Assembly: GCA_030141605.1 (NCBI GenBank)
Contig: JAQGDQ010000329.1
Location: 186,001-250,000, forward strand
Source of the DNA: Tubiluchus corallicola
Lineage: Eukaryota > Animalia > Priapulida
Length of the DNA stretch: 64,000 nucleotides
Direction: 5' to 3'
The position numbers and the translations under genes are program-made. Of this stretch, positions 6,301 through 48,400 are shown piece after piece (position 1 is the first letter of the stretch; every line of letters begins with the position of its first letter). A model generated the notes under the pieces. It was given only the letters and a program-made list of their open reading frames with translations, made no database searches and was not told the DNA's origin.

Positions 6301-9300
6301 AGGCAGTTACATGAAAAGCACCAATTAGCAAAGAAACAACTAAAGGATGTTTTCTTCTTGCAGCGACATCAAATGTTAATACGTCACGAAAAGGTAATTT
6401 ATTGTGCATCAGTCACAGAACACGCTGTCTATATTCACATTAAACTGTCCTATAAAAGTCGCAAGCATTTTTTACATAGTTGAAAGAATGCTATGCAGTT
6501 ATACATACTGTTGCTTTTTTGAAATAACACTGACGTACAGTTGATATTGGTTGCTTAGTTATGCTAACCTTGTTCCAGGAATAATTTGCATATGTTACTG
6601 CCAGTGAGTATCTGGGGAATGATAACTGTAAGCAATGTTGTGAATGGACAGTTATTATAGCAACAGATAAAGTAATACTCTGTTTCAGAATACCAGCAGT
6701 AGTTGACATTAGGTGACCACTGACCGAATAAACCCGTTATGTGTGTGTGTGTACTTCTTGAGAATACCCGAATCCTTCTCAGAAACTAATTCCATTGAAG
6801 TAGCTCTTTTCTTAGAATAAATTTGGCTGATTGTACTATATGTGTCTGTGTATTTTAAATGTCCACTGTTGCATAGTAGCACCAGTTTGTTGCCAGTTAG
6901 CTGAATTATTTTAAATTTTATTATATTTGTGATGCGTACAAACAGTGAATGTCTATATTTCACTTATGTGCTAAGCTTTATTTTAGAAATGTGTGGGCAT
7001 ATTCGAAATCAAAATACCTATTCACAGTCATATCTTCCAACCTGAACCACCTGTCCAACTGAACCCATATTTTCTTAATATTTGAAATTTTTGTGTTGCA
7101 ACATTAGGCATTATTGTAATTCTGATTTCACCTCAATCTGGATTATTTACTTGCTGAATAAGTTGTAACAATAAAAAAGCTGGATATCTAGCAAAAGCCA
7201 TACGACAGAATAGGCCGTTGTAACGCTTGTGCTATTTACTTATAATTCTAGGAACTTGAACAAGTACGGCGATTGAACCAACAAAAGGAGGAAGAGTTGT
7301 TGCGACGGCAACAAACAGAGAAAAAAGCACTTCCTAGAAGGCAGAGACAAGAGATGAAAGTTCGCTCGATCATGTTTAAAGAGAGCTTGAGAATCAGTAA
7401 TCAAGGCAACAGCTCTGCTGAAAGTGACCGGGCTAAAATTAAGCATGTACGTAACATTTTTAACCCACTAGTAAATGTCACTTGCATTAATTACTTCTTC
7501 ACTAGTTGTTGCTTTGTACTTTTGGTTACAAAATTAAAATTCACTAGCAGTTTAAAGAAAGTACAACAAGTGTATCCACTTGTTTATATATTATATCAAA
7601 ATATATAGTCACTAATCCTAGTTACCCTACGTATAACGTGACTTAGTCTTTAATAGATTTGACACTGTTAGTTATTCTCGGACTGGCATTTGGAAAATAA
7701 AAATTGGATTAGGTCATTTAAAGGAAACCAGGATGACTTTTTGTATCCTACATTTTAACACGTATAATTATAAAGAGATTAAGTTATTAGCAAGCCAAAC
7801 TAGTCATAACATCTCAAATGAACATAGTATTCAACATGAACATGCCATGAACTTGCTGCATGTACTTACAAAAGCAAAAGTTGAAGTGTGTGGAGCTACT
7901 GTACAACATTTAGTGTGATGTACGAAAACTTGGCCAATTATAAGTTTAAAATTCAAGTTTCAAGTTTATCGCTGTGCTCACGCATGAGCTCTTGAACTCA
8001 TTATATCACAACTGAACACCTCTAAACTGAGAGGTACAGCACCTGTTTTTGTGAAACGCATTTCCGAGATACAGACACTAGTCTAACTAGCGAATGGCGA
8101 AATGCATTTAACAACGAAGAACTAGTTGTGCGTTCTGTGGCAAAATTATTTCACAAAAGTCATTCTTAAAAAATAGTACAGTCCCTTTTAATATTTGGTG
8201 GGCAGATTGTTTTAAGCTATAGTTTAAGATTGGGTTCGGTTTTCCTTTAAAATTTTACTGAAATTCTTAGATTAGCTTTAAAATTTCTGACAGCACTTTA
8301 AAGGCGACATTTTGGTACTGCAATTTGGGCACAAGAGGCCAAAAAGAGCATTCCCAAAAGGCAGCCCAATTTTCCCCTATCCAAATGGCCTATCACCTTT
8401 GTATTGTAAATATTTCTGATTCTTTTTATTTCCTTTTAAGGTGCACATATTGTTGTATTGGTTGTCAAGTAAAATAAATAAATAAGCAACGTGTTTCACT
8501 CATGCTGTGTATAATGTTTGTCCCAAAAATTTAGCATAGTTTTTCTGCATCTAGTTTGAAGAAATGGAAAAGAAGAAGTATAAGGGTGACCTACTAAAAC
8601 AAGAGGCCAAGCACAAGCGACAACTGGACGCTTTACGAGCAAATGCTGAAATGGCTTTGAAAGAGTTGGAACAGCTACAGAATGAAAAACGAAAGATGAT
8701 AACAGAACATGAAAGCACAAAATTAAAAGAACGAGACACAATTTATCAGCAAGATTTGAATGACTGGCGATCAAAACTCCGGCCTAGAAAACAGGTAACA
8801 ATTTCTAGACTTTGTCTGGCAAATAGCAATGCGTAGGTATCCTATTAGGTTTCGTTTAACACATGCCTTAATATTGAGAAATGCCTTCAATCAGTATGCC
8901 TTCAAGGCTTTTAGTCTTCAATACGTATGCTACTGATGCAGTACCAAGGTACCAACATTTGTCGTGCAAGTAAAGTTACATAACAACTGTAACTAACTTT
9001 CTGGTGACTGGACGTTTTGAGAACTTTTAATTTTTAGTATGAAAAACAATGGCTTCCTCTCTGTTGACCAACACTGCTTTATAGATATCCATCAATAATC
9101 TTATTTGTACAACAAGCTGCTTCGCACCATTTTTATTGGCAGACTAATTTTAAATTGGATTTGTCATAATTGCGCTTAACTACTAAATTAATAGTGATGT
9201 CAAAATTTGATGCAAAATCTGACAGATTTACTGTTTTTAGTTCAGAACATTCCACAGAGGGTTCTTAGTCCTTAGGTGTGACTTGATTAATTAAACAAAA

Positions 9301-10368: not shown

Positions 10369-12484
10369 AAATGTTGTGACGATTGAAAATTTCATACAAC
10401 TGCTTCGTTAAATGATTAGCATCTTCTAAATTTAGTTTGTGCAGAAAGGCTGCAGCACAAAATATATGTGAAGATTAATGCACAAAATATATGTGAAAAT
10501 GAATGCACCAATTATTTCATGATTTTGTAAAGCACAACACAACGTTGAATTATCATTGTCATCTAACTCTTTCTGCATGGCTAAACTAGTTTCTGTTATG
10601 TTGCAAATGCATTGTTGAAAATCTTGCAATTATTTCCCAACTCTCATCCATTATGAGCACGTCTTTGAAATCTCCTTAATCGACTGTTAATATTAATTCG
10701 AAATACAATTAAAATTTTATTGAAATGGGGTTGCTCCATGTTTAGCACTTAATTTGTACAGTGATAAATGTACTGCACAAACAAGCACTTCATTCAATTT
10801 TTTCCTTTTAGCTCTAACAGCGTCACTTAAGCCTGTATGCTGAAGCATCAATTTTTTATTGTAAAGATTTATTGATTGTATCTTTTTTGTTACCCTGTAT
10901 TACTATTATTACTAGATTGTGCTTGATGGTCATTCTTGGTAAGTTTATAGCTTTACTAGGATATTTATAACTGCTGGTCTGTAGTCATCCAACTTTTCTC
11001 TGTCATCTTAGCAGCCACTGTTTTTATGAAGCAATTTACTTTTAAAAAAATTCTTATCAGGAAATTAAAGAAAACGAATTGGGTGCTCTTGCCTACTATA
11101 TTCAGTGTAAGGTTGCGGTAATTAAATTATGATTTTACACATACATGTATATTTATAAAAGCACTTTATAAATTATTGCAGAGTCTTATTCTCTTGAATA
11201 TGAGCAGAATTATTTGAACAGTGTGAATAAAGCTTATGGAGGATTGTTACACATGTAAACAAACAATATATGATTAAATAAAACAATAATTTGAAAACTG
11301 GTTTTCCAGTGGTAATGTGTCCTTTTTCAACTTTTGTCGAATGATTGTGTTAAAATTTCAAAGACATTACTACAGTTGAAATAAAGATTATATTTAATTA
11401 CATGTTTCATGTCTTATGCCAGCTTTCAGTTGCTTGTTACTTTGTCGCTATATGCGTTAGGCATGGAAGTAGTCTCTTGCACAGGCAACTTAATTAGCTC
11501 GTATTGTTTCTGTAAAAATCCACACTTGTATCACTAATTTGAATTTATTTTTCGCTCCCAATAAGTCTAATGTCATTTGCCAAAACCATTCAAGACTGTA
11601 CCAACAATCAGCCGTCAAACAACAATCAAAGCAGCGATTTTATTACATTTGCTCAAACCCCTCAAGATCAAAAGGGTTCTTTAATTAATGGCATATCATT
11701 TCTTTTCACTTTCTGCCTTTTACCGTGGATACACACGATCCTCTTCCCAACACACCGAGCAAACTGACATCAATAAAAAGTGCCAGTTTGCAAGATCAAA
11801 AACACGTATTTTGTTCGCTTTGTACACAAATTTCTTCTTTTCCATCAATCAACAATTGCTGTTACTGGTTTGCAGTCTATTAAAATTGCACACAGCAGTG
11901 CCTTTTTCCTGTTTCGGCCTAATTTGTCAAACGAACGTTACAGCCATAATTAGATTTCGCTGTCTTTAGCATTTCATATTTTAGTTCTTTTTTCTCAGAA
12001 ATGTGTCAAACGATCATTAATGTCGATTTTATTGCTTTAGCATCCCCCTCAATTTCTGTTTTGGTTGCCAGCACGCTTTTTTTAACTTTTTGTTTCAACA
12101 CACATTCTTCTCATAGTCTTTCTCTGTTCTAAGTCTGTCTAACTTAGTCATTACATGCATACTGACACTACGTAAAATCATTTTGCCTCGTCGACGAAAG
12201 TTCTATGAAAGCGGTGCACCTAGTTTCTAGAGTATTCGATTTTAGCACAACAGTTAACTCAATATGGAAGATGGAAGTTCGTGAACTATAATTTCGTAGA
12301 TATATGAAAATTAATCGTATTCACTTATAGTGAAGAATGTAATAATAGTTTGCGTAACGTGCAGTTATATACATGCTGAAAAAATCTTCGGCGGTCTGAC
12401 TTAAATTTAGACGATAACGTCGGTAATCAACTTAACAAAGAACCAAAAGCAAACAGCTACACTAGCTACGGACTCGGAGCGCAA

Positions 12485-13378
12485 ATGGCGGTGGTAATAC
12501 GTTTTGTGGAAAGTGCATCATTTTGTACTCAACTGATTTCTAAGAATAGTACACACCTAATCAAAGTTAATTTCTCAACCCATAAGACTTCCTGCTTTAA
12601 CTTTCATAAACAGTTTTTGCTAAGCACTCGTTTAAGAGGCTTGATGTCTCAGGCTGCAAAAAATATTTGTGGGTTTGGATTACGTGATTACCAGCTTTGT
12701 CAAATCGCGGCGAAACGAAGTGCACATTGTGAAACAGGCACAGAGGGCAAGATGTGGTATTCAAGTAGCAACTACAAAAATGATGACAGTTCAACTGAAA
12801 AGCAATTTAAAATGAAACTTATGGATGTAGAGCACATATTGTGGCCAAATATATGGAAAACAATAAGAAATCGAATCTACTACAAGCTTGTGCAAATATA
12901 TTTTGACAATAAATTTACAATATCAGAATTTGCAGAAGGTGCAAAACAGGCATTTGTCTACGTTTCTGATCTAATAGCTGGTGGAAGATTTGATGAACTT
13001 GAAGCGAAACAGCTTGTGTCTAAGGAGGCACTTAGTGAGATAAAGTCAAACTTTAGCAAGCTTAGTGTCCAGCAGAAAATGTTGTTGTCTGTCCCCCTCA
13101 CAGATATTTACTTAGCATTTCCTTATGAAGCCGGAATTATATACGATGAAGAAAGACAGGAGAGGTTTTTAGAAATCATGATGGTTTTCCACTGCTTTCG
13201 GGGATTTAAGGAATTCAAAGAACAATCTGAAGCAGACTTAAACATACAGAAACACAAATCCAACATTACCATAGCAAATTACCGATTTGTGAGAGAATAC
13301 ACAAAAGGTAAAGAAGACCAAGGCTGGACAATCAACCTGCTTAACCACATTCGACCAGCAGAACACACATCATATTAA
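12485..13378 (+). CDS. MAIP1: m-AAA protease-interacting protein 1-like (MAIP1/C2orf47), mitochondrial; intronless CDS, 297 aa
   Basis: Uninterrupted ORF with a basic, hydroxylated N-terminus typical of a presequence. Motifs YFDNKFTISEFAEGAKQAF, LVSKEAL, HKSNITIANYRFVREYTKG and WTI resemble the MAIP1 family (Tim44-like fold). AATAAA follows at about 13448. Confidence 0.8.
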   Translation: MAVVIRFVESASFCTQLISKNSTHLIKVNFSTHKTSCFNFHKQFLLSTRLRGLMSQAAKNICGFGLRDYQLCQIAAKRSAHCETGTEGKMWYSSSNYKNDDSSTEKQFKMKLMDVEHILWPNIWKTIRNRIYYKLVQIYFDNKFTISEFAEGAKQAFVYVSDLIAGGRFDELEAKQLVSKEALSEIKSNFSKLSVQQKMLLSVPLTDIYLAFPYEAGIIYDEERQERFLEIMMVFHCFRGFKEFKEQSEADLNIQKHKSNITIANYRFVREYTKGKEDQGWTINLLNHIRPAEHTSY

Positions 13379-22867: not shown

Positions 22868-22987
22868 GACTACGGCCAAATCACGTTGAAAACACCGGTT
22901 CTCGTCTGATCACCGAAGTTCAGCAACGTAGAGCCTAGTTAGTACTTGGATGGGTGACCGCCTAGGAATACCAGGTGCTGTAAGCTT
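22868..22987 (+). rRNA. 5S rRNA-like sequence (head of the SINE; probably not a canonical 5S gene)
   Basis: GACTACGGCCAAATCACGTTGAAAACACCGGTTCTCGTCTGATCACCGAAGTTCAGCAACGTAGAGCCTAGTTAGTACTTGGATGGGTGACCGCCTAGGAATACCAGGTGCTGTAAGCTT is a full-length 5S with recognisable box A and box C. The terminal stem is imperfect and only TT follows. Confidence 0.8.
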
Positions 22988-24986: not shown

Positions 24987-25857
24987 ATGTCAGATAAACA
25001 TGGTCGTTCATCAAGTTTAAATATAGTGGAGGTAATTACGGAGTAACATTAGCCAATGCTGGGATGGCTATTTTCCGAGGTTTAGTTAACAGATATCTGA
25101 GATAGTGTTGCATGACCAAGGCATAAGTTTACTACGTCACACTACTTTTCATTAGTCATTACTCCTTTAAATTAATTAATTGATCATCACTGCATCACGT
25201 AATTTAAAAGTACTTGAGTTGGTGTGTGTGATTGGATAACGTATGTTTTTAGCCACCGCTTTCCATTTGTCTGGCTATCTGTTCATTGTACTAATTTCGT
25301 GTATATATTACTTTGGGATAAAAATGAAATGATGTAGTTGGTTTTGATTTGAGACATGTTACTGTTGCCATTCATCTCTATACAATATTACTGCTAACAA
25401 AAAGCAGCAAAATGTAGCACACAGAGTAGCTGTCAGCTGCGTCACAGTTGGACGGACCATATCAAACAAGAAAACATTGGTCAAGCTTCTTGCTATGAAA
25501 CCTTGCTGCTTTGTTTTTTATTTTTGTTCTGTTCTTTGAGATTCTTTTGCATCAGACTTTACTTTCCAGAATATGCATTGCTCTTTGTGTAATATAGTAA
25601 ACTTTGTAAGAATTAGTATTTAGCCTGGTAGGCCTCTTTTTTGTTTCTCTCTGCAAAATGTACTTAAAATTTAAATTTTATTGATGCTGGCATTGACCCG
25701 TATGTGACCTTGAACTCAGCCTTGTTTGAAATGTTCAACCTCCACCTCAATACAAAATTTATTTGGGGCTACAGCCCAGATCATTACTATAATTTTTCAT
25801 AACTATTTTTGCTTATAAGGATTTTTTAAAAAGACCTACCATTCCCACTTTACAACT

Positions 25858-25899
<42 letters not shown>

Positions 25900-28800
25900 A
25901 AATAGTTAAGTTTGATTTGCATATTTTGCAGGCTTCCACTGGCTATGGCTCAGAATTTGAATATGATAGTGAACGAGAAAGAAAACGGTATGGTAATTAG
26001 ACTTCATCACAGACTGTATAGTGACATTAATGTCTGCTAAATACTAAATGTTTTTTATATTAGGAATAGGAATCCCCGAAGGCACATTTTCATCAAGCAA
26101 ATCAAAGCCAATTTTTTATGCTTGATTGTCATTCTACCGAAGTTCATCCGCGTAATCTGTGTTGTACTGAGCCTAGTTCCGAATAAAATATCAAGTTAAA
26201 GTGGAACATCTGAACAGAGCCAAGCCGAATTTTTTACTGAAACCGAATTGAATTTTCTTGTAATATATTACTTAGAATGCAAACATTCCAGCAATTGAAA
26301 GGAATTGTAAAATTTGTGACATTTAAATCGTTTTAAATTGGTAGTGGTTAGTGATCTCTGTAAAATTGTTCTGGTTGCTGAATCTGTGTTTTTATTTAAT
26401 GATTAATGTAGTAAGGCATTACATATTTTAAAACATTTTAATTATTTAAAAAGCAGTCTAAGCTTTCACTAATTTATTTTCTCATGTACAAGCGAATACT
26501 CTGCGACCACACTATTGTGCATTGACACTCATGAGTTGGATAGGGACCTACTGATGGTGCATCACACTTTTCAAGTTGTACAGAAACAGTACAAAAACAG
26601 AAACAAAATGTCTGGTGTTGTGCCATGTTGGCTGTTTACTATCACCTTTTTTCTGATAAGTTTTTGAGAGTAGCAGGCAAATATTTGGTCTGTTTAATAT
26701 CATTTTCACAAAATGTTACCATAAGCTTTTTCATGTTACCACGATAATATTACCAATGATTGATGATGATCGTAAAAAGGTCAAAGGTTAAGTGTACCAA
26801 ACAGCGTATTTGTGTACACTTGACAATGCCTCCCAACCCAAGCTACTATAATACTAACAGTTTTAACAGCTAACTGGATAACTCTACGCACAGACTAATG
26901 CATAATTAAAGTCCACTTAAAACAGCTGAAGTTACTAAACTGATATGGGAGACGGCTTTGTTTACCCACATTTCACGTGACTATTGTACTTAAGACACGT
27001 TGCTGTGGTACATTTAACCTTTGACCTACAGCAACTGTGAGTGTGCACAACGAAACTGTGAAATGATATACATACATACTTACGTTATATGTGCATTGTC
27101 ACAAAGACATGCTTTCCAGCTGTTTAACTTTGCAACTTTTTAGTGTACAGTCCAGAAAGTATGCCAAAATTCAAAAGCCTTTTCCTCTTTTAATACCGTT
27201 ACAACATAATTTGTTTATATTTCGCCAGACGTGTTTGCTGTTTACATCTTTTTTCTGCTGGATAGATGTAATTTTACATGAATGTCACCATTTTATATCA
27301 GGTTAGTTATGCATGTCTATTGCTACTACTTTTTCTAACTTGTATGTTCAGTTGATGCTCAGGTAACTTTTTCTTCTCATTTCAGTTTTAAGAGGAATGA
27401 TCTAACTGCAAAAGAACCCATCCGAGCTGAGAATACTTGTTCGTCGAAGAAACATTATGAAAAAGAGCTTAAGAGGTTGGCCCATTTTAACAGTTTGGGG
27501 TGATGATTTATAAATAAAATGTAATTTTGGCAATCCTAACAAACCATGTAATTATATTTAAAGCATCACTTTAGTCATAAAATGAAATTCTAGTACCTGT
27601 AGAAGTTGAGCACCAGGTTCATTTGATGTATTAATCCCTGATTGCGTTATCAGACCAGTCAGTTTTATCATCTTATTTATTTTTTGAGTTGTTTTGAGCA
27701 TAACAATAATTGGTTATTCTTATTCATCCTGTCCTCTGTCTGTTTGCTCATGCCACTGTTTTATTTGTCACTTAGTAAATTAAAATTAGCAAAAATTTGC
27801 TCATTTATTCTAACTATACCGGTTCATATCTGTGTCTGACTTTGTCTAAGAAATCCATCATGTAAAATGTTATTTTTACAATTTTTTAAGAATGAAACGT
27901 CGAGCTAGGAGTGCATCCCCAGTGCATGAGCGAACAGACAGGGTAAAGTCGCACAACCGAAAGAAAAGACATCACCATAATGATATGAACCAAGAGCCTG
28001 ACAGTGACGAACATGAATCAGACCGGTCTTCACACAGAAAAAAACGCAAGAGGCGATCGCCAATCATAAAGAGAGAGCCTTCGGCAGACCTAGATCCCAA
28101 TCTGCCAATCAAAACTGAGCCTGTGGATAATGGTTATGGTAGACGTTCACATTCGAGGCAGGATAGCCAAGATGTTAGTCGGCTTCATGACAAAGACGAT
28201 AAAAATAAAAAGGCAAAATCAACTGAAAAACAAAAGCCAAATTTCGAAATCAGTGGTAAACTTGCAGAGGACACTAACACATATCGTGGAGTTGTAATAA
28301 AGTACAACCAACCGCCGGAAGCAAGAAGGCCCAAAACTCGTTGGAGGTTGTATCCGTTTAAGGGAGAAGCTACACTCCCTGTGCTGTATGTACATCGTCA
28401 AAGTGCGTATCTACTTGGTAGAGATCGACTAGTGGCTGATATACCTGTTGATCATCCGTCGTGTTCAAAGCAGCATGCAGTGTTGCAGTTTCGGCTGGTG
28501 AACTATAACCGAGAAGATGGAACAGTTGGTCGTAGAGTCAGGCCATTCATAATTGATCTGGAGTCAGCTAACGGCACGTTTGTAAATAACAAAAAAATTG
28601 AGTCCAGGGTTTATGTAGAATTGATGGAAAAAGATGTGCTGAAGTTTGGCTACAGTTCTCGTGAATATGTGCTGCTGCATGAACAGTCCAAAGATGATGA
28701 AGCTGATCACGAGGATGCTGACTAATTTGACTTATTTGCTTATTTCAAATTCTTATCTTGTGTTTTTGACTAAGAAGTTAGACATTCTTAAACATGTGTA

Positions 28801-31800
28801 ATTAGACCTTTGAAGTCTAGGGCTCTTTAGGATAAAATGGCAACATCATTGCAGCAACTTTTATCGATAATTGAATTGATCTGTCTATGTCTCCATTATT
28901 AAATGAAAATATGTGAACAGTATGTCCTGAAACATTTTAAACATTATTGTTTGTATAGTTTCAGTTAGATCGCATGGCATTTATGAAAGTTATATAGTTT
29001 AAACGGGCAATTTGGTCATGGAACTATTGAAACATACAACCTGTCAATTCGACTTCTAACTTGAATATTTGTTGGCTAAGCTGCAAAACTTATTATTTTT
29101 TCTCAGTTTTAAAAATTTCTGTTTTATCCCAATCGTGTCACTATGTGAAATGTGTTGTTGTCGCCTGAACATTTTTTGCTGTAAATAACTAATAAATGTA
29201 GAAAGAAACATGAGCTGTCTTGTGTTAAACATATCACTTAATTTGCTGATGTAGTGCATTTTGACGAAGTTCTATAGCAATGCAACAACTTTGTGTATGC
29301 AAACATGTAGTACAGTAGATTCTATTCAAGTGAGTCGCAATTTTCCATAGCTTCTTATTTCCAATGTTTATAAACAACCGATGATACACCTTCCTAAGTA
29401 TGGCCTTTGATGTGCTAACACTAAAATTTTTATTCGTAGAATTAAGAAAGTTTCATAACTACAATATACATACAACACAAAATTATCATTAAAATGTTTC
29501 CTGGCACAGATATAGGAACTTCCGAAAATAAACAAGCACTTTGAATTGACTTGTACACTTAGCAACACCTTAGTAGCAGTTCATTAAAATCAATAAATAG
29601 TTCGTTACAAGAATTTGCAAATTTTGTGAATGTTGCATCAGAACATTTCTTAGTGGCATCATCCAGTGACAGTTAGTTACAATTTTTTGTAGCAGTCTGG
29701 AATGCAATATGTGTAGCAATTGTTTAGTTTTATAACCAAAACTTTGAAATAGATTTAAAATATCAATTCATGTGTACGCACTTGTTGCCACTCACTTTAA
29801 TGATTAGTCAAACGCTTCCAGTTATTAAATTGTCCATAAAATGTGCCAAGACGTTATACTTGAAATCACTGTGATGGCTAATGAAGGCGGCAGCATTTGT
29901 TTTGTTTTTGACAGTCATAACAGCATGAATTTATATCTTACTGGCATGCAAAATTGCTACAGCTATTTTTTTCAGTACTTGTAGAATTGTAATTCAGAAT
30001 TTCTTTGTTATAGGTACCAAGGGCAGCCATACAAATTTAGCACTTCTGGCTTAGATGCTGTATCCATTTTGGTAAACTAGGGACAAGATTTCTTCAGTTA
30101 ACATCAAATTCACAGAGGAATTTAGTGGCCCTTTTGTGGTTTATCATTTTGAAAAGTGTAGGCCTTTGTTAGTACATCATAAATTGGCTTTACTGTTTGT
30201 TTAACTGCTTGAAGCATAGCAGACTTATCATGATAGCAGAATAATGTGTTATTTGATTATAATTTAATACTGATTATGTGCAAAATGTTTCATGGTTTCT
30301 ATTAGTAAAACCTCCTTATACTGCTCGCTATGCGACTCTAGAAAAAGCTGACATTAAGCAAGTTTGGCGTGATGATGAGATGCATTAATACATACATGTC
30401 TATGCAAATATGGACATTTTCTTTTATCAAAAAATTGGGTGTTAAACGAGGTTAGCATTATAAATGCGGGCTATATAACGAGGTTTGGCTGCATTATATT
30501 TTAGTAATTCACAACATTTTCTTAACACTTCTGTCAGTTCACAAGGCATAAACTCTTAGTCAACAACTACTTACTTTATTATCCTGGTGCCAGAGAAGAA
30601 CATTTCAAACGAGATTCGTAAGTTTTAATCATTCTGAAACTCATGTTATTTAACATTGTTGATCGTCAAACTAACAGTTATTAAATATAGATAGACTAAA
30701 TTTTTTATACTTACTTTATTCAGTCATTCTCCTTTATCAAATGGTGTCGGCCCACTTTAAAACTGCACGCTTTCATTTCAGAATAAGTGAAGTTTTACTT
30801 GTGTTTTCTATTCACATGGTGATTGAGGATTGATTTTTTCTAAACAAGAATGCCAATTCTTTGCTTCTGGGTTATGTGTTAACAAACTGTGTAGGTTAAG
30901 GAAAAATTCATGATGGGGTTTCACTTTAACAGCAGGAAATATTTTTGGTTTTCCTCATCCTGAAAAAATTGTCATTTTCTGTGCCTTTTAATCCCAAAAT
31001 TCAACGTGTTTAGGTCAAAAGACAAAAAGGACATAGACGTCATCAGAGAGCATCATCAGTTTCTCTGGCGTGAAGATGACGATACTGACAGTTTGTGGTA
31101 AATTTCTAACAAGGTTTTGCCTAAATTTGTGATAGTGATTCTTACTAAAACTTACGTTAAACTCAAAAGGCAGTCAGTAGCCGTATGCATTTAACAGTGG
31201 TGTTTAGTACATTGTTTACACAATATTGTTTCACTCTTGTCAAAGTTTATGTTGGCATCTATAGGCATCTATGGTAAAGTAAAGGTGCAAATGGCAAAAC
31301 TGAAAAATTAACATTAAAGTGGTTCACAGTAAAATGGTAAACAATAAGCATGGAGATGTTTTTCGTAAATAATTCTGAAAGTAGTCATTTTCTTGCAGGG
31401 AAAAGAGGCTCGCAAAGAAATACTATGACAAGCTTTTTAAAGAGTACTGTATCTGTGATCTTTCTCGATATAAAGAAAATAAGGTGATTAGTGATGTGCG
31501 GGTGCACTTAGTTGTTATACAACTGAAGAATCATGGTTTCTTAGTTTGTTATTCAAAAAAGATGTTTTCTTTGTATCCTTGACTGTCAGTCATTTTACCT
31601 TAACTAGCACAAAAAAATTATCTATAATTATTCATTTGCAGTTGATACTTCTTGTAGGTAATGTAACCTGTGTTCATTCGTATAACATTATTGCATCTAC
31701 ATTGTTAGCCATCCTAAAAATCTCAGTTTTATTCTTAAGGTTGCAATGAGATGGAGAATAGAAGCTGAAGTAATATCTGGAAAAGGTACGTTTGATATCC

Positions 31801-34800
31801 CATTCGTTGTACATTCATTGTATTGGGAGTTGCAAGTTTTGCAAAATATTTGCAAGTTGCAGGTCTGCGCATGGTCAGAAATGTCATTGTTCTACAAGAA
31901 TCTATGGGACTCATTTTTAAATTGTATTTATAAATATACAGTCTAGCCTCGTTATCTCGCCCCTCGTTATGCCGCCAAACTCGTCTCTCGCCATAGATTT
32001 TACCAGGACGGATTTCCTGCTTTGATATTTACCTCGTTAAATTGCCACCCTCGCCACGTCATGCTAGGATGAGTACTTAGGTAAACTATATTCGTTATGT
32101 CGCCAAACAGACAAACTCAGAGGTGAATCGATCAATACATATACTGCGTGTGGATCAATATAACCGCGGTATGTAGACAATGCTGCTGTACTCAACAGAC
32201 AGACATAATTAATCTAGTGTGTGTCTCACCAGGATTAGATTAGGAGTGCTGTGGTTGGTTAATGCGCAGAGAAACTAAAGCGTCACCGATATCCTTACTC
32301 TATAACACCAAAGCTGCGTTTAAGTTTGAGTTTCCACAAAGTGTGAGCAACTTTACATGATGTCTCTGAAGCGAAAACTGTTTTGTCTTAATCCTGAACA
32401 AAAAAAGGAAATTTGTATTTATCATACGAACGGGCAGGCCGCGGGCAGCAGCGATGAAGATGACACGGGCAGTTGCGATGAAGACGATGGCTCATCTCAT
32501 GTATCGAATGACCAGGCAGCAGCAGCTGTCGACACACTGATGCGATATTTTGAACAGTCTGACATCGTCACAAGTGACGATATTCAAGGATTGTGTGTAT
32601 CATCAATGAAACAGTCGTCTCTTCTGAATTATTTCAGTCGTCAGTATCTCATTTGTGAACATTTCTAAATCTTTTGCTATGTTTATTGCATTTAAGTGTA
32701 TACTCGAAAAAGGTTTTTTAAATAAAAAAATAACATTCTAAGATTATTTTTATGACATTTTTTTCATTTCTGATTTAATGTTGATTGGTATCATAATGCG
32801 AAATATATTTTATATGTACATAGAGGAACACTATGTTAATCAACTATTATGTACAGTATGTATATACATATAGACTAACTTCGTTATATCACCGTTATCT
32901 CGCCATACTCGCCTCTCGCTAAAAATTTGCCCTAGACAGACAGGGGCGAGTATACTGTTAGACTGTATATGTTAATACAATGTTAATGGCCCTGTTGCAG
33001 ATATACGCTTCGCTCGGCGATGAGGTATTGAAAAAAAGTACAAGCGCTCACGGTACGTCGTCCACACTTAGTGCATTTATATAATGAATAAACTTTCTGT
33101 GCACTTTTTACATTAGTTGTCTGACTAGTTTATATGACCACCAGTGAACACAAAAAAGGGACCTCAGAACGAGTCAACGGACTGCCGTGCAGTCACATAC
33201 AATATACACTTAGTGTGCCAATAGGAAAGAATAAAGTTTTGCAAACTGATGTTTGATGGGAAATGCGTAAGATTTGGGTTATCATAATAAGTCTTTTCAC
33301 AGTCTTCACAGGTCAAAGGTTATGTGTACCATATCAGTGTGTCTTAACTATAACCATCACACAGCATGTGCGTAAAGCAAAGCCATCTGCTCTGTACCAA
33401 TTCAGTAATTCACGGTTGTTTTACATGGGCTTTACTTAATTATGCATTATTCTGTGCGTAGAGTGATTTACTAGCAGGATCTTGCTTGGGAACAAGAAAA
33501 AATTAACTGGGTGAGGTTCTCGGTAGCTGTTAAAACTGTTACTATTATAATGGCTTGGGCCATGAGGTGTTGTCAAGTGTACACAAATGCGTTGTCTGGT
33601 ACACTTAACTTTTGAGCTTTTCGCAATCATCATCAATCACTGGAACTGTGAAAAAGCTTATTATGTTAAGTCAAACTGTTATGCTTAAAGGCACTTAGAG
33701 GTTGATGTGGGTGTGAATACTTAATTTTAAATAAGGAATAGGCAGAGTTTCCTTACTGTGTATGACCTGAAAGCTTGTAACGAGGCAGATTCAACCCTGT
33801 GAGTTTACTCGACATTACGTGTCATTTGACAATCAAAGATGGCAAATGACAGCTTCGAGTCACTTGATGGCAATTTCTAGGACATGTCTAAGAAAAGCTC
33901 GATGCTATATTTAATAAAAAATAATAAAACCACAATGGCTCATTTTTTACTAGTCAAGGTTTCCCACATTTCTAAGCTTTTGTAGGACACTTTCAATGCG
34001 GAAATAACAAGTGCAACAACACAGAATCGCTTAGGTCTTGGGAGGTCAATTTTGGATATGTGGAACATGGAGAGAAGAAGAATGCTCTAGTCAAACTAAG
34101 TATGTAACTATGATATTTCATTAAACTGAGACAAAACATATCTTTCTTACTAGAGATCCATATATGAATAGACTATAGGCTTATTAACACAGATCGAATA
34201 ATTCAAAGTAACCCACTCCGCATTTACCCAATGCCACAAATAAGTAAACACAATATACTGGGCACTTATAAAATTGCACTGGTAACTGTGATTAATGATT
34301 GTATCAATGATTAAATGTATTGTATGAACTGCATTGATTGTAGGCATATAGTATTCTATTATATCGTACGGTAATGTATTGTTTTAAATCAATAATACAG
34401 TAGGCACCGCTTAATAGACTCACTTTGGGACCGAAGTGTTTTGACCCAATTAACCGACTGAACCTATTAACCGATGGGTGTAGTATTCCTGGTATAGAAG
34501 TTTGAGTCACCAGCTTACTATGCAAAAGTTTTTAATGAATTTTAGAAACGAAGTAATGCCTAAATTTCTTTGTGCAGTTAAAAATTAAAAAATGTATTTT
34601 AAAATATCAAATATTAATTTATATAACTGAATTAGCAATGCATTAAAAAGTATACTTTTCTAAATCAGACAAGTCTGTTTATTTGCAAAAATTACAAAAA
34701 TTCCTTCAAAGTCAGCTGTTTCATTTCATCGCAAAGAAGTTGGCTCACAAAGTTCTCATAATGACAAAAACATTGAAAATCTGTTGTACGATGCATAAAT

Positions 34801-36604
34801 TCTCGTAAAACACTTAGTGCTTGGCGTGCTTAAATTGTTGGTGATGCCCACGTTTCCCCGCAAGTAGCTTCGTCTGTAGTTTTGCCTAAGCTTCTGCTTG
34901 CTATTGTGACACACTTACTGTACTGTACCTGTATCCCAGGCATAATGGCAAGATCTACCTGGTTAAACTTTCTGGCAAAGACAGCCTCAAAGGCAAACCG
35001 CTAAGCAAGTGATTAAATGTTTAGCCTCCAGGAATTCTTGGGTAACGAGGTTAATTGCAGTAGATGTGCTGGTCAAAGGAAACCATCAGGCTAGCATATT
35101 AGCGTATGATAAACGTTCCTGCTTACAACAGACCAAACGGTACTTAACATGATTATTTCTATGTATATTATAGGACAAAAGCGAACTAAGATGATGTGAA
35201 AGTCATAAAAGCTTATTAGTCACACGAAAGTGTCTTACTGAAGTCAGTTATTGTATTGTATTGAATAATGGCTGCATAAAATGATCGTGACTCTCTTTTC
35301 TATTGTAAATGCAACTGAACCTGCTTAATAAATCAATGATTTTTGTGTTATGATAGTTCAATTAGTCAGTGTGGATGGTATTAATTGTGTGATTAGCTTT
35401 CATTTGGTTTGTTCTGCTACTTTAGTTTAGTATTTTCATGTGCTCCTTGAACAACAGTTTTTTTCAAATACCAGTTTTTTATCTGTGATAAATTGCTGTT
35501 CATTAACTTCCTTATCATACACAACTGTTATTCAGTATAATAGTAAATAAAGATTATTCTATCTATCTAGGAATTGGGAAAGTGCATTAATAAAAACCAT
35601 TAGCCATGTGCTTTGCTTTATTTTTGTAGGATTATGCCTGGACTGCTCTTACATGCTGAATTATCATCATAAGTAAGTAAACATTTTCTCGTATAGTTAC
35701 TGAGTTAAATATCTTAGCAATGTATTGTGTTTTAGGTTAATTCATTTTATTAGTAGGCTGTATTTTTTGTTCATTTTCCAGAAGAAAAGATGTAACAAAC
35801 AAGCGAAAAAAGAAAATCCTTACTCACCATGGTGTTGATGAATTGACATCTACACCTGCTACCACTTCGAAGGGTAAGCATCATGGTTTACATCTCCCAG
35901 CAAATCTGTACAAGAAAACTTGTTCACTTTTGTAAAAATTATAAATCATCTGGATTTTTTCAGACATTCCGTCTTCATCAAATAAAGGTACAATTTCATC
36001 AGAACAATCTGAAGATGAACCAGACCAGGTTGCAGAGTCTGCAGAAGATATATGGAAAGCGCCAGTTAAATTCACAGAAGATAAAACAAGGTTACATTTC
36101 ATTTACTTTCTGCATTTTGCATTCTTTTAAAAAATTTTGGTAATAGTTAGGGTATGAACAGAAACTGGAAAATTCTACTTGCACAAAATTTTAAAATTAA
36201 ATTGTTTGGATGAATATATACTTTATCAAATGTTTCAGTATTTGATTAGAGTGTATCAATATATCAAAGAATATTTCGCTACCCCAAGAAGACGTGTCAT
36301 TATATATCATGAATGCATTAAAAGTAGTACATACTTCTTTTGTTTTGAAGATTCCTGGTAAGGGAAAGGTGCTGTTTGTTTGCTTTTCTGCAATGTTAAA
36401 TGTGTCTTTATGTTCTACTTCTAATTATGTGTAAGTGTGAACAGTTTCTAATGCCTTAATCAAGTGCAGTAACGATGACAACCAGTAATTATCCTTTTAT
36501 TCTTTGTAAGCTTATATATAATGTTGTGCCGTTGTTTTATTTACTGTCTTTATTTTTTTAGGAATGAAGAATTTGAAGAATATTTTGAAGACCTGTTCTT
36601 ATAA
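24987..36604 (+). CDS. FRA10AC1: Protein FRA10AC1 homolog (spliceosomal C-complex-associated), 316 aa, 13 exons
   Basis: Exons 24987-25031, 25932-25987, 27386-27475, 30014-30059, 30538-30617, 31014-31097, 31399-31483, 31740-31785, 33986-34099, 35630-35672, 35782-35873, 35964-36090, 36562-36604; 951 nt, open throughout. Peptides DIDVIREHHQFLW, WEKRLAKKYYDKLFKEYCICDLSRYKENK, RWRIEAEVISGKGHFQCGN, LRSWEVNFGYVEHGEKKNALVKLRLC and C-terminal EEFEEYFEDLFL* match FRA10AC1. Exon 1 is inferred from ATG, phase and a GAG|GTAATT donor only. Confidence 0.93.
25864..25893. repeat. (TA)n microsatellite
   Basis: About 15 TA units just upstream of FRA10AC1 exon 2. Confidence 0.9.
26720..27026 (+). mobile_element. 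MITE-like dispersed repeat, copy 1 (inverted relative to the copy at 33311-33665)
   Basis: Internal inverted repeats GGTCAAAGGTTAAGTGTACCA...TGGTACATTTAACCTTTGACC. The body aligns by eye with the reverse complement of 33311-33665. Confidence 0.7.
27892..28725 (+). CDS. SNIP1: Smad nuclear-interacting protein 1 (SNIP1/Pml1, FHA domain, RES complex); single coding exon nested on the same strand in FRA10AC1 intron 3
   Basis: 277-aa ORF with a basic/RS-like N-terminus, then KPNFEISGKLAEDTNTYRGVVIKYNQPPEARRPKTRWRLYPFKGE and the FHA motifs LLGRDR..ADIPVDHPSCSKQHAVLQFR, IIDLESANGTFVN and KFGYSSREYVLL. It is preceded by an acceptor (tttttacaattttttaag|A ATG). Candidate poly(A) signals: ATTAAA 28898, AATAAA 29191 and 29592. 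Confidence 0.96.
   Translation: MKRRARSASPVHERTDRVKSHNRKKRHHHNDMNQEPDSDEHESDRSSHRKKRKRRSPIIKREPSADLDPNLPIKTEPVDNGYGRRSHSRQDSQDVSRLHDKDDKNKKAKSTEKQKPNFEISGKLAEDTNTYRGVVIKYNQPPEARRPKTRWRLYPFKGEATLPVLYVHRQSAYLLGRDRLVADIPVDHPSCSKQHAVLQFRLVNYNREDGTVGRRVRPFIIDLESANGTFVNNKKIESRVYVELMEKDVLKFGYSSREYVLLHEQSKDDEADHEDAD
30060..30537 (+). other. Probable U12-type intron of FRA10AC1 (intron 4)
   Basis: The donor GTATCCATT is one mismatch from GTATCCTTT. A branch-site-like TTTTCTTAAC ends 11 nt before the exon start, with no long pyrimidine tract between. This is the U12 3'-end architecture. Confidence 0.7.
30303..30492 (-). mobile_element. ~190-bp pogo/Tigger-type MITE family, copy 1
   Basis: Ends TAGTAAAACCTCCTTATA...TATAACGAGGTTTGGCTG. 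The reverse complement matches the copies at about 60655-60808 and 62281-62420 (shared atatttgcataga..tgtatgtattaat core). Confidence 0.7.
31939..32965 (+). mobile_element. Internally deleted pogo/Tigger-type DNA transposon with a transposase remnant ORF (32357-32668)
   Basis: Termini TA-CAGTCTAGC...GTTAGACTG-TA with repeated subterminal CTCGTTAT/CTCGCC motifs. The ORF joins a CENP-B/Tigger-like start (KRKLFCLNPEQKKEI) to a Tigger-like end (AVDTLMRYFEQ...KQSSLLNYFS) and lacks the DDE domain. Confidence 0.8.
33311..33665 (-). mobile_element. MITE-like dispersed repeat, copy 2
   Basis: GGTCAAAGGTTATGTGTACCA...TGGTACACTTAACTTTTGAGC; reverse-complement homolog of 26720-27026. Confidence 0.7.
34398..35245. 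mobile_element. Second, right-truncated copy of the 20093-21067 element
   Basis: Starts TA-CAGTAGGCACCGCTTAATAGACTCACTTTGGGACC and is colinear with the 20093 copy for about 850 bp. No right TIR is visible, so the end is approximate. Confidence 0.85.
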
Positions 36605-41930: not shown

Positions 41931-42479
41931 GTTGTTACTTTGTCTCTTTGGGTTAAATTGCCTATACAAAAAATTGGTTAAAACGATGGTAATTATTTGT
42001 TTGTTAATGTAAGTAACCTTAGATTATTTTTACTTCAGTTATAAGATGTGCGAAACGAAACAAAGGTTTTGTATATTAGGCACTGAGTATAACCCCGAGA
42101 GACAAACTAACGACAATTCTGTCAATTCATGATACGCTTATTGTGACAAAACTGCATCTTAAAATTTCATTTATATTTAAACTTCTTATGTTTGGTGATC
42201 TTTCCTGAAATGAATAAACAAAATGTCTAGTCTTTAGTCAGCTGATAGTTGATACTGAAATTGCTGTTTCTGATTCTGATAAAGCAAGTAATATTGCCAA
42301 TTCTCTCAATTTACCAAGGCTCTCAATCTTCACTGTAGCTTAATGTTACAGCAATGCTGCAATAGTAAGTAACAGTCATGCATGATAAATCAATATGTCT
42401 GTCATAATATCCACAGAGCCCTTCAAGTTTCTAAAGCTTCTCGTGTTTATACACTGTACCTTTTCAATGTGTTTCAGCT

Positions 42480-45400
42480 ATGACAGATATCAGGAGGAGG
42501 TACTTTGTCAACAAGCTCGCTGACTACAAGGAAGGACACATTGTCGTCGATAAAGAAAAATGGACGGAACGAATCATTTACTTGGTCAATAATATTACAA
42601 AGGATCAACCGGCTAAACTAGACCACTGTGATGGGGGTCTGTATGTGGGTTGTGCAGGTATTTCCTACACACTTTTTAGTCTGGCAAGATATGGTGCATT
42701 TAAAGACAATGAGACCATGCTGCTGAAAGCTGCTGAGAGTTATGCCACCACGGCGTTTCAGTTTGCGCAACTTCCAGAAAATAAGAATGACCAGCAGATG
42801 AGGTCTTCATTTTTGCTGGGCAACCTGGGTGCCTATGCTGTCGCTGCCGTTGTGTATAATGCTATTGGTCGTGATGATTTGACAGCAACGTGTTTAACTG
42901 AGTATGCACTGGCTGCGAATCTTGTAACACCAACACATTTCTTACGTTGCGGATCTGATGAACTGTTTGTTGGCAGAGCTGGCTACCTGTGTGGTCTACT
43001 AATGTTGCATAAATTCACTGGACAACAGGTAAAGCTTTTAAAACCCTGCATGGCATTGCCAAAAACACTACTTGTTTTAAATTACCAAATAGAATTTGAT
43101 TGTTAATGCACTGTAGGAACTTACACTCATTTTCTCATTCATTATTACTATTTTCTTTAGACATTTTTTATCTTCACACAAAGCAGTCTATAAAATATTG
43201 ATATAATAAATGGCAATTTTTTCAACATTACATTTATCTCAGAAGTTCTATACAACATACAAAATTAATATGTTTATAATATGCATATAAAGTCACACTC
43301 ACACACACGCATGCATGCACGCACACACGCGCGCACACACATGTCAACAGAAAAACCTTATTGTGTAAGGTTATGCTAGGACTAGTACCTTGCTCGTGAA
43401 GTTTAGTCCGCTAAGATTGCCACGTTCAGATTACCAGAATCAGTATGGAGAATGGAATCTTTAGCCTGACTCAACCATCTATTTACAGACTAGAGACTCC
43501 GTGTTGCTTAACTTGTGGTGCTCAGCAAAAATCGTGATCGCTCATCTATTCTCCTTGCCCTCATGCTTTTAAAACTAGACTAAAAATTCAAGCTGTCGAT
43601 CACGTGCATTGTCTTCAACATGCACATGATGACTCACACCTTCCTAGGCTCCTAGCTGACATAAGGAATCTGGTCTACCAGACGTTTGCTTCTGTGTGAA
43701 CAATATTGTCAACTAGAAGGATCTCACTCTGTGGTAAGCTTTGAAAACAACCCCTTTGGCATTTGATTTGTTCTGATACGCTTTCGGCAAAACCAAGTTG
43801 AACGTTTGTGTTTCATGTTTAGGCCTTTATGGTTTACATACGTTTAATATTAATTGCTACACATACATGTATGCTATGCATCTGGTAAAACTTTGCCTCT
43901 TGAATACAGGTGGTAAGCCAAGAACTGGTTGATGAAATTTGCTCTGCAATAATCAAGTCTGGTAAGGAATACTCAAAGCGTCATCGATCACCATCGCCTC
44001 TTATGTATGCTTACTATGACACAGAGTATATAGGTAAATTCCTAAGTTAAGGTACTTTAAATTTAGTTTGTGAGATATGAGAACCGTTGTTATTAACTTT
44101 TTATTTTGTCAAATGAATTTCTTATAAAATTCTGTTTGTTCAAAATTTTTGGGGCATATTTGGTTTACAAAATGTTTAACTCGAAGTTATATGCAAATTT
44201 TTGATGCTGATTTATCTTATAAAACACGAAAAAAGAGAGCTTATTTTTTAAAATCCGAGTTTATAGTGACAGTAAAATGTTAAACAGATACCACAGTGTA
44301 CACGTTTAATTTTAAAGTCTTGTTTCCTTGTTTATGTTATCTTTGTTAACAGGACCTGCGCATGGCATAGCTGGTATTCTGCAGATGTTGCTGTGTTTTC
44401 CCGAATTTGTTAAAAAGGATCCGACTGTGGAGAAACTAGTCAGAGAATCAGTTGAATTTATATTGTCTTTAGAGCAATCGAATCACAATTATCCAGCAGG
44501 CATGGATGAAGTGAGTTTCTCATTTATTTTAGTCTTAATTCTTAATCACATTCTTACCTATTAACAGCTAACATTTAAAGAAGAAGAAAATGAAATTTTG
44601 AAGTATATCTAAAGAACTTTCCAAACAAAGTTATATTACTTATTATTTCGCTTAAACTTTTGAAAGATTTATGTAACTGGAAAAGAAAATTCTGAATGAC
44701 TTACTATATTCACTTCACCTGGTGAAATGGCACTACATTCCAATGCGCACCACAGATTCATCAAAAAACACATTAATTTTATTGACAATATAAAGTAATT
44801 TAAACCTTTGCTTAGCAAAGATTGTGCTACGAATGTTCTGATTATTTTTTCAAACTTACTGCAATGTTAAGTATACTTGTTTCAAACGACTTATTGTTAA
44901 AATGGCTGCACCTAAAGGTCATCACGGGAATTTAAGTTTAATAAGCTTTATACAACGTTACTCGTTAACGTTACAATGTTAACGAAGCTCGTTGTCCTAT
45001 AAGAGGGCATGTAACTGATGTAGCAGTAAAATTTCAAGGCAAATTTCTTAAGCTTGATTTATGAAGAGTGTTTTCTTGTACTTTAACTGTCTTTGGCATT
45101 ATCCAGGATGCTTACAATATCCTGATATTGTTCTACAAAATTTTGAATTTTTTAGAGTGCAATATCAATTTTCACCACAGCAAGTAGTATTTGCCTACTG
45201 CTGCTGCTGCAGCTGTCAAGATACAAAAGTTCAAACACGATAATCCATTGATCTGACACTGATATGCTTGCTTGTGTCAGCTTTACATTTTGGGCGTGAA
45301 GTTCTTGCTGCTTCTTAACACTGCTGGCTAGGCTTTGTTTGTTCTTGTTCAACTGAATCAATACTGTGAGCTGGATAAATTGCTTTTTAACCAAAAGTCT

Positions 45401-48400
45401 GAAACTGCAGCAGCTAATTCGGGGCAATTGCCTCAGAAACCACTGTCATTAATTAAACTGTTGATGTGGTGCCTTGGTTTTAAAGGCCAAATACAGCATA
45501 TTTTATGAAGTTTCAGTTTTGCACAAAAGCAGAAAGAAAATGCGATTTTCTGATACTTTTAACTTCTTCTTGGATAATTTATATAAGAGGGAAGTTGAAA
45601 GAAAAGTGTCATTTGCAAAGAAAGTGTGGAATTTTATCTCGCACATTTTGCTCGTTGGATGGCACCAGCAAAATATTCCCTTAGGTTACGGTGGCATTTT
45701 TGTTTGGTTATCTCTGTGTAGCATTGTTTACAAATTCAGAATCACAGAATCGATGCGTTATCCAAGGAAGCCGTTTCTAGCACTTGTTTTTAGCCTGCGA
45801 TTTTCCGAAGTTTCACAAGCAAAACCGAACAAAATGTTTTGGAGAAAATGCAACTTCGAGACCAGATTTCATTAGGAAGGAAGCCTAGAAATTTAATAAA
45901 ATCTGTATCAAATTTTAAGTTACACTTAGCTCTTTTTATTAAAGAAAACTTGTGTTTACGTTAAATTTGTGTTTATGTTACCTTTAAAAACATAATCTGT
46001 GATAAGCCTGACATAACTTTCCTGGGCATGCGGTTTACTGTAGTTGTGCAAAAATCCATTGGGACATTATAATAGCTTGTTTTCTGAAACTCAGAAAGAT
46101 CACTTTCAGGTAATGAACTCGTATCAAAAATTTTCTGATCCTGAATTCACAACTTTACAGTTACCTAGCTCTGATTGCCCATGCTGCTAGAGTACCACTT
46201 TGGTAGCTACATAATAATTAGATTTATACAAAGTGCATGCTTAATGCACAAAGACTAGTGTAATGCATTAATGAGTTGCCATTGTTATATTAAAATTCTA
46301 TTCAAAACTTTTTTGGATAAAGAAAAATCAGTGGTGTAATGAAGTATGTCATTAATTTCTTTTCCTCCAAAGAACCATTCTGCATGAGTAATGAATTGTT
46401 TTCTGAATTTCTTGCTCTCATGGCGTTTTTTATGCAAAAAAAATCATTTTAGATTGCTAAATGGTCTTTTTGTTTTGTCATATATTAATAAGTAAGTAAG
46501 ATCTCAATTTAAACTTTATTTCAACAATGAGCAAAACTGCTTTACATGTCTCTTGAGTGTAAAATAGATCTCAATTTAAACTTTATTTCAACAATGAGCA
46601 AAACTGCTTTACATGACTGTTGAGTGTAAAATACACTAACTGCACAATATATACACAGTAAATTATAAAACAGTCTATTTTAACCATATAACATATGACC
46701 CATCTGAGTTATTCATGAAGAATACATCTCACTGTAGGTTTTTGAGCACTTCTTGTTAATATCATAGTTTTCAACGTTTTCAATTAGAATGTAAGCCAGT
46801 TGATGTTACAGGTTACTTCTAGAAGACCCGAAGAAGAAGAATTGGTTCACTGGTGTCATGGTGCTCCTGGTAAATAACTTACTAGACTAGTTTTTTTTTT
46901 TTTTTATTTAACATAGACCTGTAACTAAGATTTTATTTGATATGCACTGGTACATTATAAATTTGGTTACTTATAAGTAATGATTTAATATAGTCTAGAA
47001 GCTATTTGAATAAATTTAATGTGATTTAATTTGGTTCAATGCAACATGTGCAAAGTGTAAAATTATCCATGTGACTTGGATTAAGCGATCACAATTATGT
47101 CATTTGAATTTTGTAATTGATATATGGTATAAAATAACTTAGTATGTTAGGAATCTTACGGTCCAAGCGAACTTTGTTAACGCTGTCTCGCTACATTTTT
47201 TCTGAAAGCCTGAAGTTAAAGCTGAATCAGTGTTTCTGGAAATACAATTTAATGCCTTTACTTGGGGTGAGCATAGTCTACCAGAAAGTGAAATTGAATT
47301 GAATTTGTAGAACTTTGTTAAAATTATGCTGTCTCGTTACATTTTTTCTGAAAGCCTGAAGTTAAAGCTGAATCAGTGTTTCTGGAAATACAATTTAATG
47401 CCTTTACTTGGGGTGAGCATAGTCTACCAGAAAGCGAAATTGAATTGAATCTGTAACTTTCAGGCTTGAATTAAGCTGTATTTCAGCATATTCGAATCCA
47501 AATCGAATTTGAATACAGTTATGAAGATTTTTGAATGACTAATAAAAAGCGGTCTCACAAAGATCATGCATACTACTTGATTTCATTCAGAAGTACAAAC
47601 ACTAATAATTAGTTGAAAATTGTGCTGATTGTGTGATGTTTCAATGTTTTCATGATAATGAATGTTTGTAGTTGCAGTGCTCGATTGTTTAAATCTATAA
47701 TTTTAGATTTGAATCAAATTAGAACTAAAACAACTCTTTCAAATCAAATTCGAGGGTCGATGCTCACACCTAGTCTTTACGACCATGTGTGAGTAAAAAT
47801 AATTTGTACACAATTTGTTTCGTGCTTAGGGAACGTATCAGCTAAACAGCAAGTACATAGAAGCAAGCATAGTTATGCAAAAGTTTTGCCAAAGTACATA
47901 CTTTTTTTTTATAAAGCCGACTCACAAACCGATAGGAATATGTTACAAATTTTAAAGATATGTAAAGATATTCATTATCCGTCAATTATTTTTGTTTACA
48001 TTTGTCACTTTGAGTGCAGTATGTTTGCATTTCATTATAACAAGTCTCAGAAATGAACACCACCTTTCCACCTTTTTTGGAGTTTATAAAAGAATTAAGG
48101 TAAAGATTTTTCACATTTTGAATGTCTGTGGCAACATCGTTGCGGCATACCATTCAATTTTATGCAGACCAATCAGTAGCTGAAAAACGTTTCGGTAAAC
48201 ACATAATTCAGTGCAAAATCCCAATGATATTATTGATTTTAGTGTTTTTGATTATTAATAAGCAAAATATTAGTATTTTTATTCTGTTTTATTAGTAGTC
48301 TTATAATAGTAAAATAATTCTGAGCACTAATGATGATGTAATGGATGCTGCACAGATTTCCAGGTTTCCACACAAACGCTGAAGTAAATAACTCATTTAT

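Follow-up and report, generated by a model that had tools for sequence, protein, structure and literature searches.

A probable splicing switch that makes SNIP1 an alternative last exon of FRA10AC1 in the priapulid Tubiluchus corallicola

Introduction

Guest coding sequences that serve as an alternative last exon, or that run on a host promoter, are known from TRIMCyp, CSB-PGBD3 and Utp14b/Acsl3, each with a retrocopy or a transposase as its guest rather than the native last exon of a core splicing factor. Loci at which unrelated conserved genes share coding exons with either-or splicing are rare. Here, we describe a probable case in a 64,000-nucleotide stretch of AT-rich DNA from the priapulid Tubiluchus corallicola (contig JAQGDQ010000329.1, positions 186,001 to 250,000, forward strand; hereafter the window), in which the coding exon of SNIP1 lies within intron 3 of FRA10AC1. 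In human, these two genes are unlinked. By orthology and from the literature, both proteins belong to one pathway: SNIP1 recruits the RES complex at activation (PMC13194972), while FRA10AC1 is present in the Bact, C and P complexes (PMC10048706).

The closest described layout is that of Su(var)3-9/eIF2gamma in insects. There too, a single large exon of the guest gene lies within an intron of the host, on the same strand (Krauss et al., 2006; PMC1435931), and both mRNAs share 5' coding exons (for 79-84 amino acids there, and for 64 in the window), with alternative splicing choosing between them. The C. elegans pair unc-17/cha-1 (PMC3875643) likewise combines an intron-nested gene, a shared 5' exon, a single pathway and a ratio that has to be set. 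For unc-60A/B of the same species, the decisive event is repression of the near acceptor, through which the donor remains available for the far one (PMC3875643).

Results

One promoter in the window probably supplies two spliceosome proteins. Alternative splicing from exon 3 of FRA10AC1 would yield either a 341-residue SNIP1 with a borrowed N-terminus of 64 residues or FRA10AC1 itself, and we put the probability of this reading at about 0.86. FRA10AC1 is intact in the window, with 13 exons on the plus strand (24987-36604, a span of 11.6 kb) that encode 316 residues, and its Fra10Ac1 domain (PF09725), matched in exon 7, lies within the full-length frame. The three exons that both products would share are exon 1 (coding part 24987..25031, with the common start codon), exon 2 (25932..25987) and exon 3 (27386..27475); together they contribute 191 coding nucleotides and end in phase 2. 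The SNIP1 coding exon (27891..28725; one nucleotide, 277 codons and the stop) follows inside intron 3 (27476-30013). Its frame matches human SNIP1 with an E value of 7e-78 and has a C-terminal FHA domain of the SNIP1 type (PF00498, E 4.5e-16, residues 173-253, 28408..28650); frames and Pfam matches thereby confirm the same-strand nesting that a first-pass annotation of the window had reported. Joining 27475 to 27891 opens a single frame of 341 residues (64 from FRA10AC1 and 277 from SNIP1), so that the phase-2, in-frame fusion predicted there also holds, and joining 27475 to 30014 continues the FRA10AC1 frame.

The SNIP1 join was found in X2, a sequencing run that was guessed to be RNA and was aligned to the window at 85% likeness; its pieces are 91-94% identical to the window, so that, although it bears the same label, it probably comes from a related species. 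Record 9 of this run, a 247-nucleotide contig with a depth of 65.5, places 89 letters on exon 3 (8 differences) and 142 on the SNIP1 exon (8 differences). The joint between them skips 415 nucleotides with GT..AG ends, which is exactly the predicted intron 27476-27890 (GT..AAG), and the junction that the first-pass annotation had named as a check is thus present in one contig, which stems from a relative and from a run that is probably RNA. The first 10 letters of the contig do not lie on intron 2, as would be expected with exon 2 spliced on, and no other listed X2 contig crosses the start of the SNIP1 exon. The same 415 nucleotides are unspliced in a second run, X1, which is nearly identical to the window and may be DNA or RNA. 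An X1 contig covers 27155-28413 with 2 differences in 1259 positions, which argues that the arrangement is a property of the DNA and not an assembly error. One X1 difference, at 27442 in the shared exon 3, replaces Ser by Leu and would alter both products. Over 27155-28888, the unspliced X1 contigs reach depths of 114 and 73, compared with 10-22 in the remaining single-copy parts, and end shortly before an ATTAAA at 28898; this excess could stem from unequal amplification, from capture, from additional copies, from RNA that retains the intron, or from the run having been selected through the 27155-28888 stretch itself. In X2, the depths of the bins that contain exons 4, 6 and 7 (3.18 and 2.9) did not agree with a single contig depth and were set aside, and isoforms were not ranked by contig depth.

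The competing join is implied by P0121, a 316-residue protein from a 2329-nucleotide contig that was found by a search with FRA10AC1 exon 9. It aligns to the 13-exon model gaplessly with 86% identity (56 of 64 residues over exons 1-3), begins at the same Met and runs across the junction of exons 3 and 4; most likely, it derives from the spliced mRNA of a close relative. The gapless match extends over all exons specific to FRA10AC1, namely exons 4-8 (30014-30059, 30538-30617, 31014-31097, 31399-31483 and 31740-31785) and exons 9-13 (33986-34099, 35630-35672, 35782-35873, 35964-36090 and 36562-36604). In a FRA10AC1 tree, the window protein stands beside P0121 on an unresolved branch, and in a quick SNIP1 tree the window sequence groups with Priapulus and P0001 (SH-aLRT 90, unstarred). 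The X2 join and the join implied by P0121 support the earlier proposal of one transcription unit with two mutually exclusive 3' ends.

That the shared N-terminus belongs to FRA10AC1 is evident from its homologues. Within a set of 120 proteins, its first 63 residues match the Mytilus-cluster protein P0140 (E 8e-9) and a Patiria protein (E 5e-5), and exon 2 is homologous to the FRA10AC1 N-termini of both. The same 63 residues have no match among 120 SNIP1 homologues (best E 1.8), none of which has a FRA10AC1-like start. Trans-spliced leaders (PMC8527503) were considered and do not apply, as what the two products have in common is coding sequence linked in cis.

Both acceptors that compete for the exon 3 donor are phase-matched and score highly with a matrix built from the 12 acceptors of FRA10AC1 itself. 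The acceptor before 27891, a U-rich tract followed by AAG (27871..27890), ranks first among 150 AG sites scored in intron 3, with a score of 6.2; an unused AG at 29915 effectively ties with it (also 6.2), and the exon 4 acceptor scores 5.7. Among the 16 AGs scored between the donor and the SNIP1 ATG, the one before 27891 is the only one in frame through to the SNIP1 stop. All 12 introns of FRA10AC1 are GT-AG, with CAG at six acceptors, TAG at five and AAG at one (before 31740), which bears out the statement that the gene has an AAG acceptor elsewhere.

Taken together, these data are consistent with the following course of events. The exon 3 donor may take the near acceptor at 27890, as seen in the relative, and the SNIP1 transcript would then end at an intronic poly(A) site within 28900-29600. 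Alternatively, the donor may wait for the acceptor at 30013, as the relative's protein implies, and the SNIP1 exon would be removed with the intron. In either case, translation would start at the shared ATG. The presumed 3' untranslated region of SNIP1 (28726..29600) contains candidate poly(A) hexamers at 28898, 29191, 29488, 29527, 29583 and 29592, so the poly(A) signals noted by the first-pass annotation are indeed there; as a supporting argument, they carry little weight. AATAAA occurs three times between the SNIP1 stop and exon 4, against a mean of 1.5 in shuffled sequence, and 195 of 1000 shuffles reach three.

The chance-level hexamer count is one of several points that weigh against a single switch with two products. 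The SNIP1 join is known from one contig of one run, which was guessed to be RNA and comes from a relative; no RNA run with the window's own sequence was listed, a blank that carries no information on expression. Both record 9 and the P0121 contig run unbroken past the choice point at exon 3, with the two joins coming from different libraries, and the SNIP1 join might not occur in the species of P0121. The exon 3-4 join does not figure among the joints shown (15 of 165). A full-length fused protein was not found: exon 3 as a query returned no match among 1.84 billion representatives, and the first 66 residues returned seven candidates, of which only P0121 was confirmed and none is fused. Four window frames have no entry in the protein collection, and FRA10AC1 has no match among solved structures.

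The near acceptor is strong in sequence and is reached first, so some brake on it is required. By analogy with the repression described for unc-60, the best candidate is a predicted RNA helix, which had escaped the first-pass annotation. An inverted repeat pairs positions 27734-27758 of the intron with 27920-27943 of the coding sequence, a purine-rich stretch at +30 to +53 of the exon; inverted-repeat and fold analysis gives 20 unbroken pairs and four more beyond a bulge (24 bp). The helix encloses the acceptor and, in its loop (27810..27840), two candidate branch points at 27810-27814 and 27836-27840 that were placed by consensus match only. With -34.9 kcal/mol over the 20 unbroken pairs, it ranks first of 70 among helices of at least 14 bp with loops of up to 600 nucleotides in the whole window, and none of 400 intron shuffles reaches this energy (mean -13.1, standard deviation 2.6). 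The best helices at the other 12 acceptors of the gene range from -5.9 to -14.3 kcal/mol. Both mismatches of the DNA repeat become G-U pairs on the sense strand (-39.6 kcal/mol for sense, -33.6 for antisense), and the fold z-score is -4.25, for a stretch picked after the repeat had been seen. There is no Rfam match within the FRA10AC1 gene.

The helix would cover branch points, acceptor and purine-rich exon stretch and could in this way restrain the near acceptor; that it dampens this site and sets the ratio of SNIP1 to FRA10AC1 has, in our estimate from the fold models, roughly even odds. Three predictions tell against such a role. The mean unpaired probability of the acceptor is 0.22, the second lowest of 13 acceptors, with another at 0.13; it is only 0.40 with the intron arm blocked and 0.25 before the exon arm has been made; and the 281-nucleotide window at the helix falls outside the 14 lowest-energy windows of the gene's 295. 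The predicted masking of the acceptor is modest, which would also fit a neutral scar: the repeat may have arisen as a small inverted duplication with no part in the splice choice, an explanation whose odds we consider a little short of even. Mobile elements in FRA10AC1 (26778-27027) give strong helices as well. A scar of this kind sits less easily with the single-copy nature of each arm in the window, with the fact that one arm encodes protein, and with the sense-strand G-U pairs at both mismatches; moreover, the window's strongest short-range helix lies on the one acceptor that needs regulation.

The small inverted-repeat element mentioned above is present in two copies of opposite orientation, in intron 2 (26778-27027) and intron 8 (33430-33626), which could pair as a 32-bp helix (-52 kcal/mol) around exons 3-8 and the SNIP1 exon. 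A 17-bp short-loop hairpin at 55317-55366 (-30 kcal/mol) is the third strongest short-range helix of the window.

How the guest exon entered FRA10AC1 is best judged from SNIP1 genes elsewhere. In termites, the SNIP1 gene has three exons, the last of which encodes 222 residues after a phase-2 intron, and in 68 of 80 metagenome SNIP1 loci, many of which may be transcripts, the conserved core lies in one stop-free frame. For 16 of the 49 loci of at least 2 kb, the best acceptor falls 120-128 residues before the SGKL motif and defines an exon of 278-286 residues; the corresponding values in the window are 120 and 277. The guest exon thus resembles a native last exon in size and start, which makes capture at the DNA level likelier than retroposition, and on balance we favour capture as the probable route. 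SNIP1's native large last exon, with its own acceptor, would have entered the intron by a DNA-level event, and FRA10AC1 exons would have replaced the first exons of SNIP1. Weighing against capture, the 16 matching loci look phase 0 rather than phase 2, are mostly close kin and had their acceptors chosen heuristically.

The phase difference fits better with a retrocopy that landed in the intron and came under a cryptic acceptor, a route that Krauss et al. (2006; PMC1435931) put forward for the insect locus. Such a retrocopy would also account for one large intron-free exon within an intron-rich gene and for the ATG at the exon start; still, we regard this origin as unlikely. In many animals, the native last exon is free of introns and agrees with the guest exon in size and start point, SNIP1's own N-terminus, expected in a full retrocopy, is absent, and neither a poly(A) remnant nor a target-site duplication stood out. 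The lack of introns as such was considered as proof of retroposition and rejected, given that a large intron-free last exon is native in other animals.

A search for FRA10AC1 in the 80 metagenome loci (337 kb, mostly short pieces) found none (best E 2.1), which shows only that termite-like loci, with flanks of up to 10 kb, are unfused. In Priapulus caudatus, the SNIP1-like RefSeq model XP_014667962 (P0021) is 5'-partial, and its first stretch resembles a phase-2 acceptor that has been translated in frame. Either nesting of the exon or a gap in the assembly would explain this equally well, and the model leaves room for an arrangement that may be old and overlooked by annotation. In seven of the metagenome loci (L044, L045, L056, L063, L066, L075 and L077), an FHA core of the SNIP1 type ends frames of 670-945 residues, far above the usual length of SNIP1.

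Downstream of the shared start, five ATGs in other frames come before the ATG of SNIP1, which makes the fused 341-residue protein the likely product. The SNIP1 exon begins near residue 91 of human SNIP1, so that the fusion lacks about 90 residues of the N-terminus and gains 64 in return. The borrowed residues (15 K/R, 12 D/E and 9 S) stand in place of a charged N-terminal stretch. Among 20 named homologues, counted after one false motif match had been dropped from 21, 113-307 residues precede the SGKL motif, compared with 120 in the window for SNIP1 alone and 184 for the fusion; as an argument on the N-terminus, this length range is weak. In human SNIP1, K265, K301, R365 and E366 of the FHA domain are tied to binding of phosphorylated SF3B1, according to part of the report concerned (PMC13194972). 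All four are kept in the window as K157, K193, R257 and E258 (a manual count on the alignment), from which the fused protein should work as SNIP1. Retention of these residues, together with the silent nature of the single X1 difference inside the nested SNIP1, also speaks against the view that a canonical SNIP1 lies at another place in the genome and the fusion only supplements it, in which case dosage coupling would not be forced; we consider such a second copy improbable.

More doubtful still is an ordinary nested gene on the same strand, with a separate SNIP1 promoter within one of introns 2 and 3, translation from the ATG at 27892 and the exon 3 join as a minor by-product. Its ATG lies one nucleotide past the acceptor, and the deeper unspliced X1 contigs (114 and 73 against 10-22) could, provided that X1 is RNA, represent transcripts that retain the intron or start inside it, although depth cannot show levels. 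Against this, the only X2 contig listed over the exon start is spliced, the ATG aligns too far into the human protein to be a native start, and the 415 nucleotides upstream have a GC content of 30% and an observed-to-expected CpG ratio of 0.22. The first-pass annotation had argued from the lack of a promoter-like stretch there, an argument of little weight: by the TATA, DRE and Ohler-1 patterns, the region upstream of FRA10AC1's own ATG is equally motif-free. That different species use different joins and no single species switches is very improbable, for although the joins come from separate libraries, of relatives 91-94% (X2, DNA) and 86% (P0121, protein) identical to the window, the window itself keeps both frames intact behind phase-matched acceptors of 6.2 and 5.7, and contigs drop rare variants.

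Several features surround or interrupt the locus. A 5S rRNA-like sequence (22868-22986; Rfam RF00001, 97 bits) is situated about 2 kb before FRA10AC1 in a region of very high copy number, and intron 8 contains a 112-codon frame (32330-32668) in a repeated region that has no Pfam match and is probably a DNA-transposon remnant. Neighbouring genes are a kinase with a PKK domain (338-7608), a LanC-like gene (42435-50437) and a minus-strand frame (53593-54504). A single frame of 332 residues at 12380-13378 is without a Pfam match; we take it to be MAIP1-like.

Discussion

With alternative splicing from one promoter as our preferred reading, both products of the locus are part of the machine that makes the choice between them, and the locus offers a natural test of a spliceosome setting its own subunit ratio. 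The helix at the SNIP1 acceptor is a specific cis-element that is open to mutation. Dosage coupling and splicing feedback, both proposed by the first-pass annotation, would be possible consequences of the layout. A more far-reaching version, in which the animal has no SNIP1 but this one and the levels of both proteins feed back on the splice choice, so that SNIP1 as an activation-stage factor is balanced against FRA10AC1 as a later-stage factor that affects the tolerance of splice sites, is speculative and in our view rather unlikely. In Chlamydomonas, loss of FRA10AC1 leads to tolerance of mutant splice sites (PMC5881031); this effect points to a possible route for feedback and is not evidence of feedback in the priapulid.

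The locus also bears on how proteins and genes are put together. It suggests that an unrelated charged segment can take the place of the disordered N-terminus of SNIP1, and, if the probable origin given above is correct, it presents a case in which two genes fused because one captured the other's native last exon. SNIP1 models annotated as 5'-partial may hide the same layout. A full-text literature search on both names, with most subscription journals and supplements outside its scope, found no report of a fusion between SNIP1 and FRA10AC1.

The layout as such is already known from Su(var)3-9/eIF2gamma and unc-17/cha-1. Complementary sequence pairs are said to control the splice choice at unc-17/cha-1, in work by Mathews and colleagues from 2015. 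That locus differs from the window (PMC3875643) in that its shared exon is non-coding, whereas 64 residues are encoded here, in that three exons are specific to unc-17, and in that the products do not act on splicing. The unc-60A/B genes encode paralogous cofilins and repression of the near acceptor is carried out by RNA-binding proteins (PMC3875643), in contrast to the helix proposed for the window. Several features of the Su(var)3-9/eIF2gamma type recur here: a single guest exon on the same strand, 5' exons shared in frame (as joined in X2) and a host protein that is intact when the guest is skipped (as in P0121). At the insect locus, the products are functionally unrelated, the guest is thought to be a retrocopy, and some restraint on its acceptor is expected by the authors (Krauss et al., 2006; PMC1435931). 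In the window, both products are spliceosome proteins, the guest resembles a native last exon, and a predicted helix encloses an acceptor whose sequence is strong.

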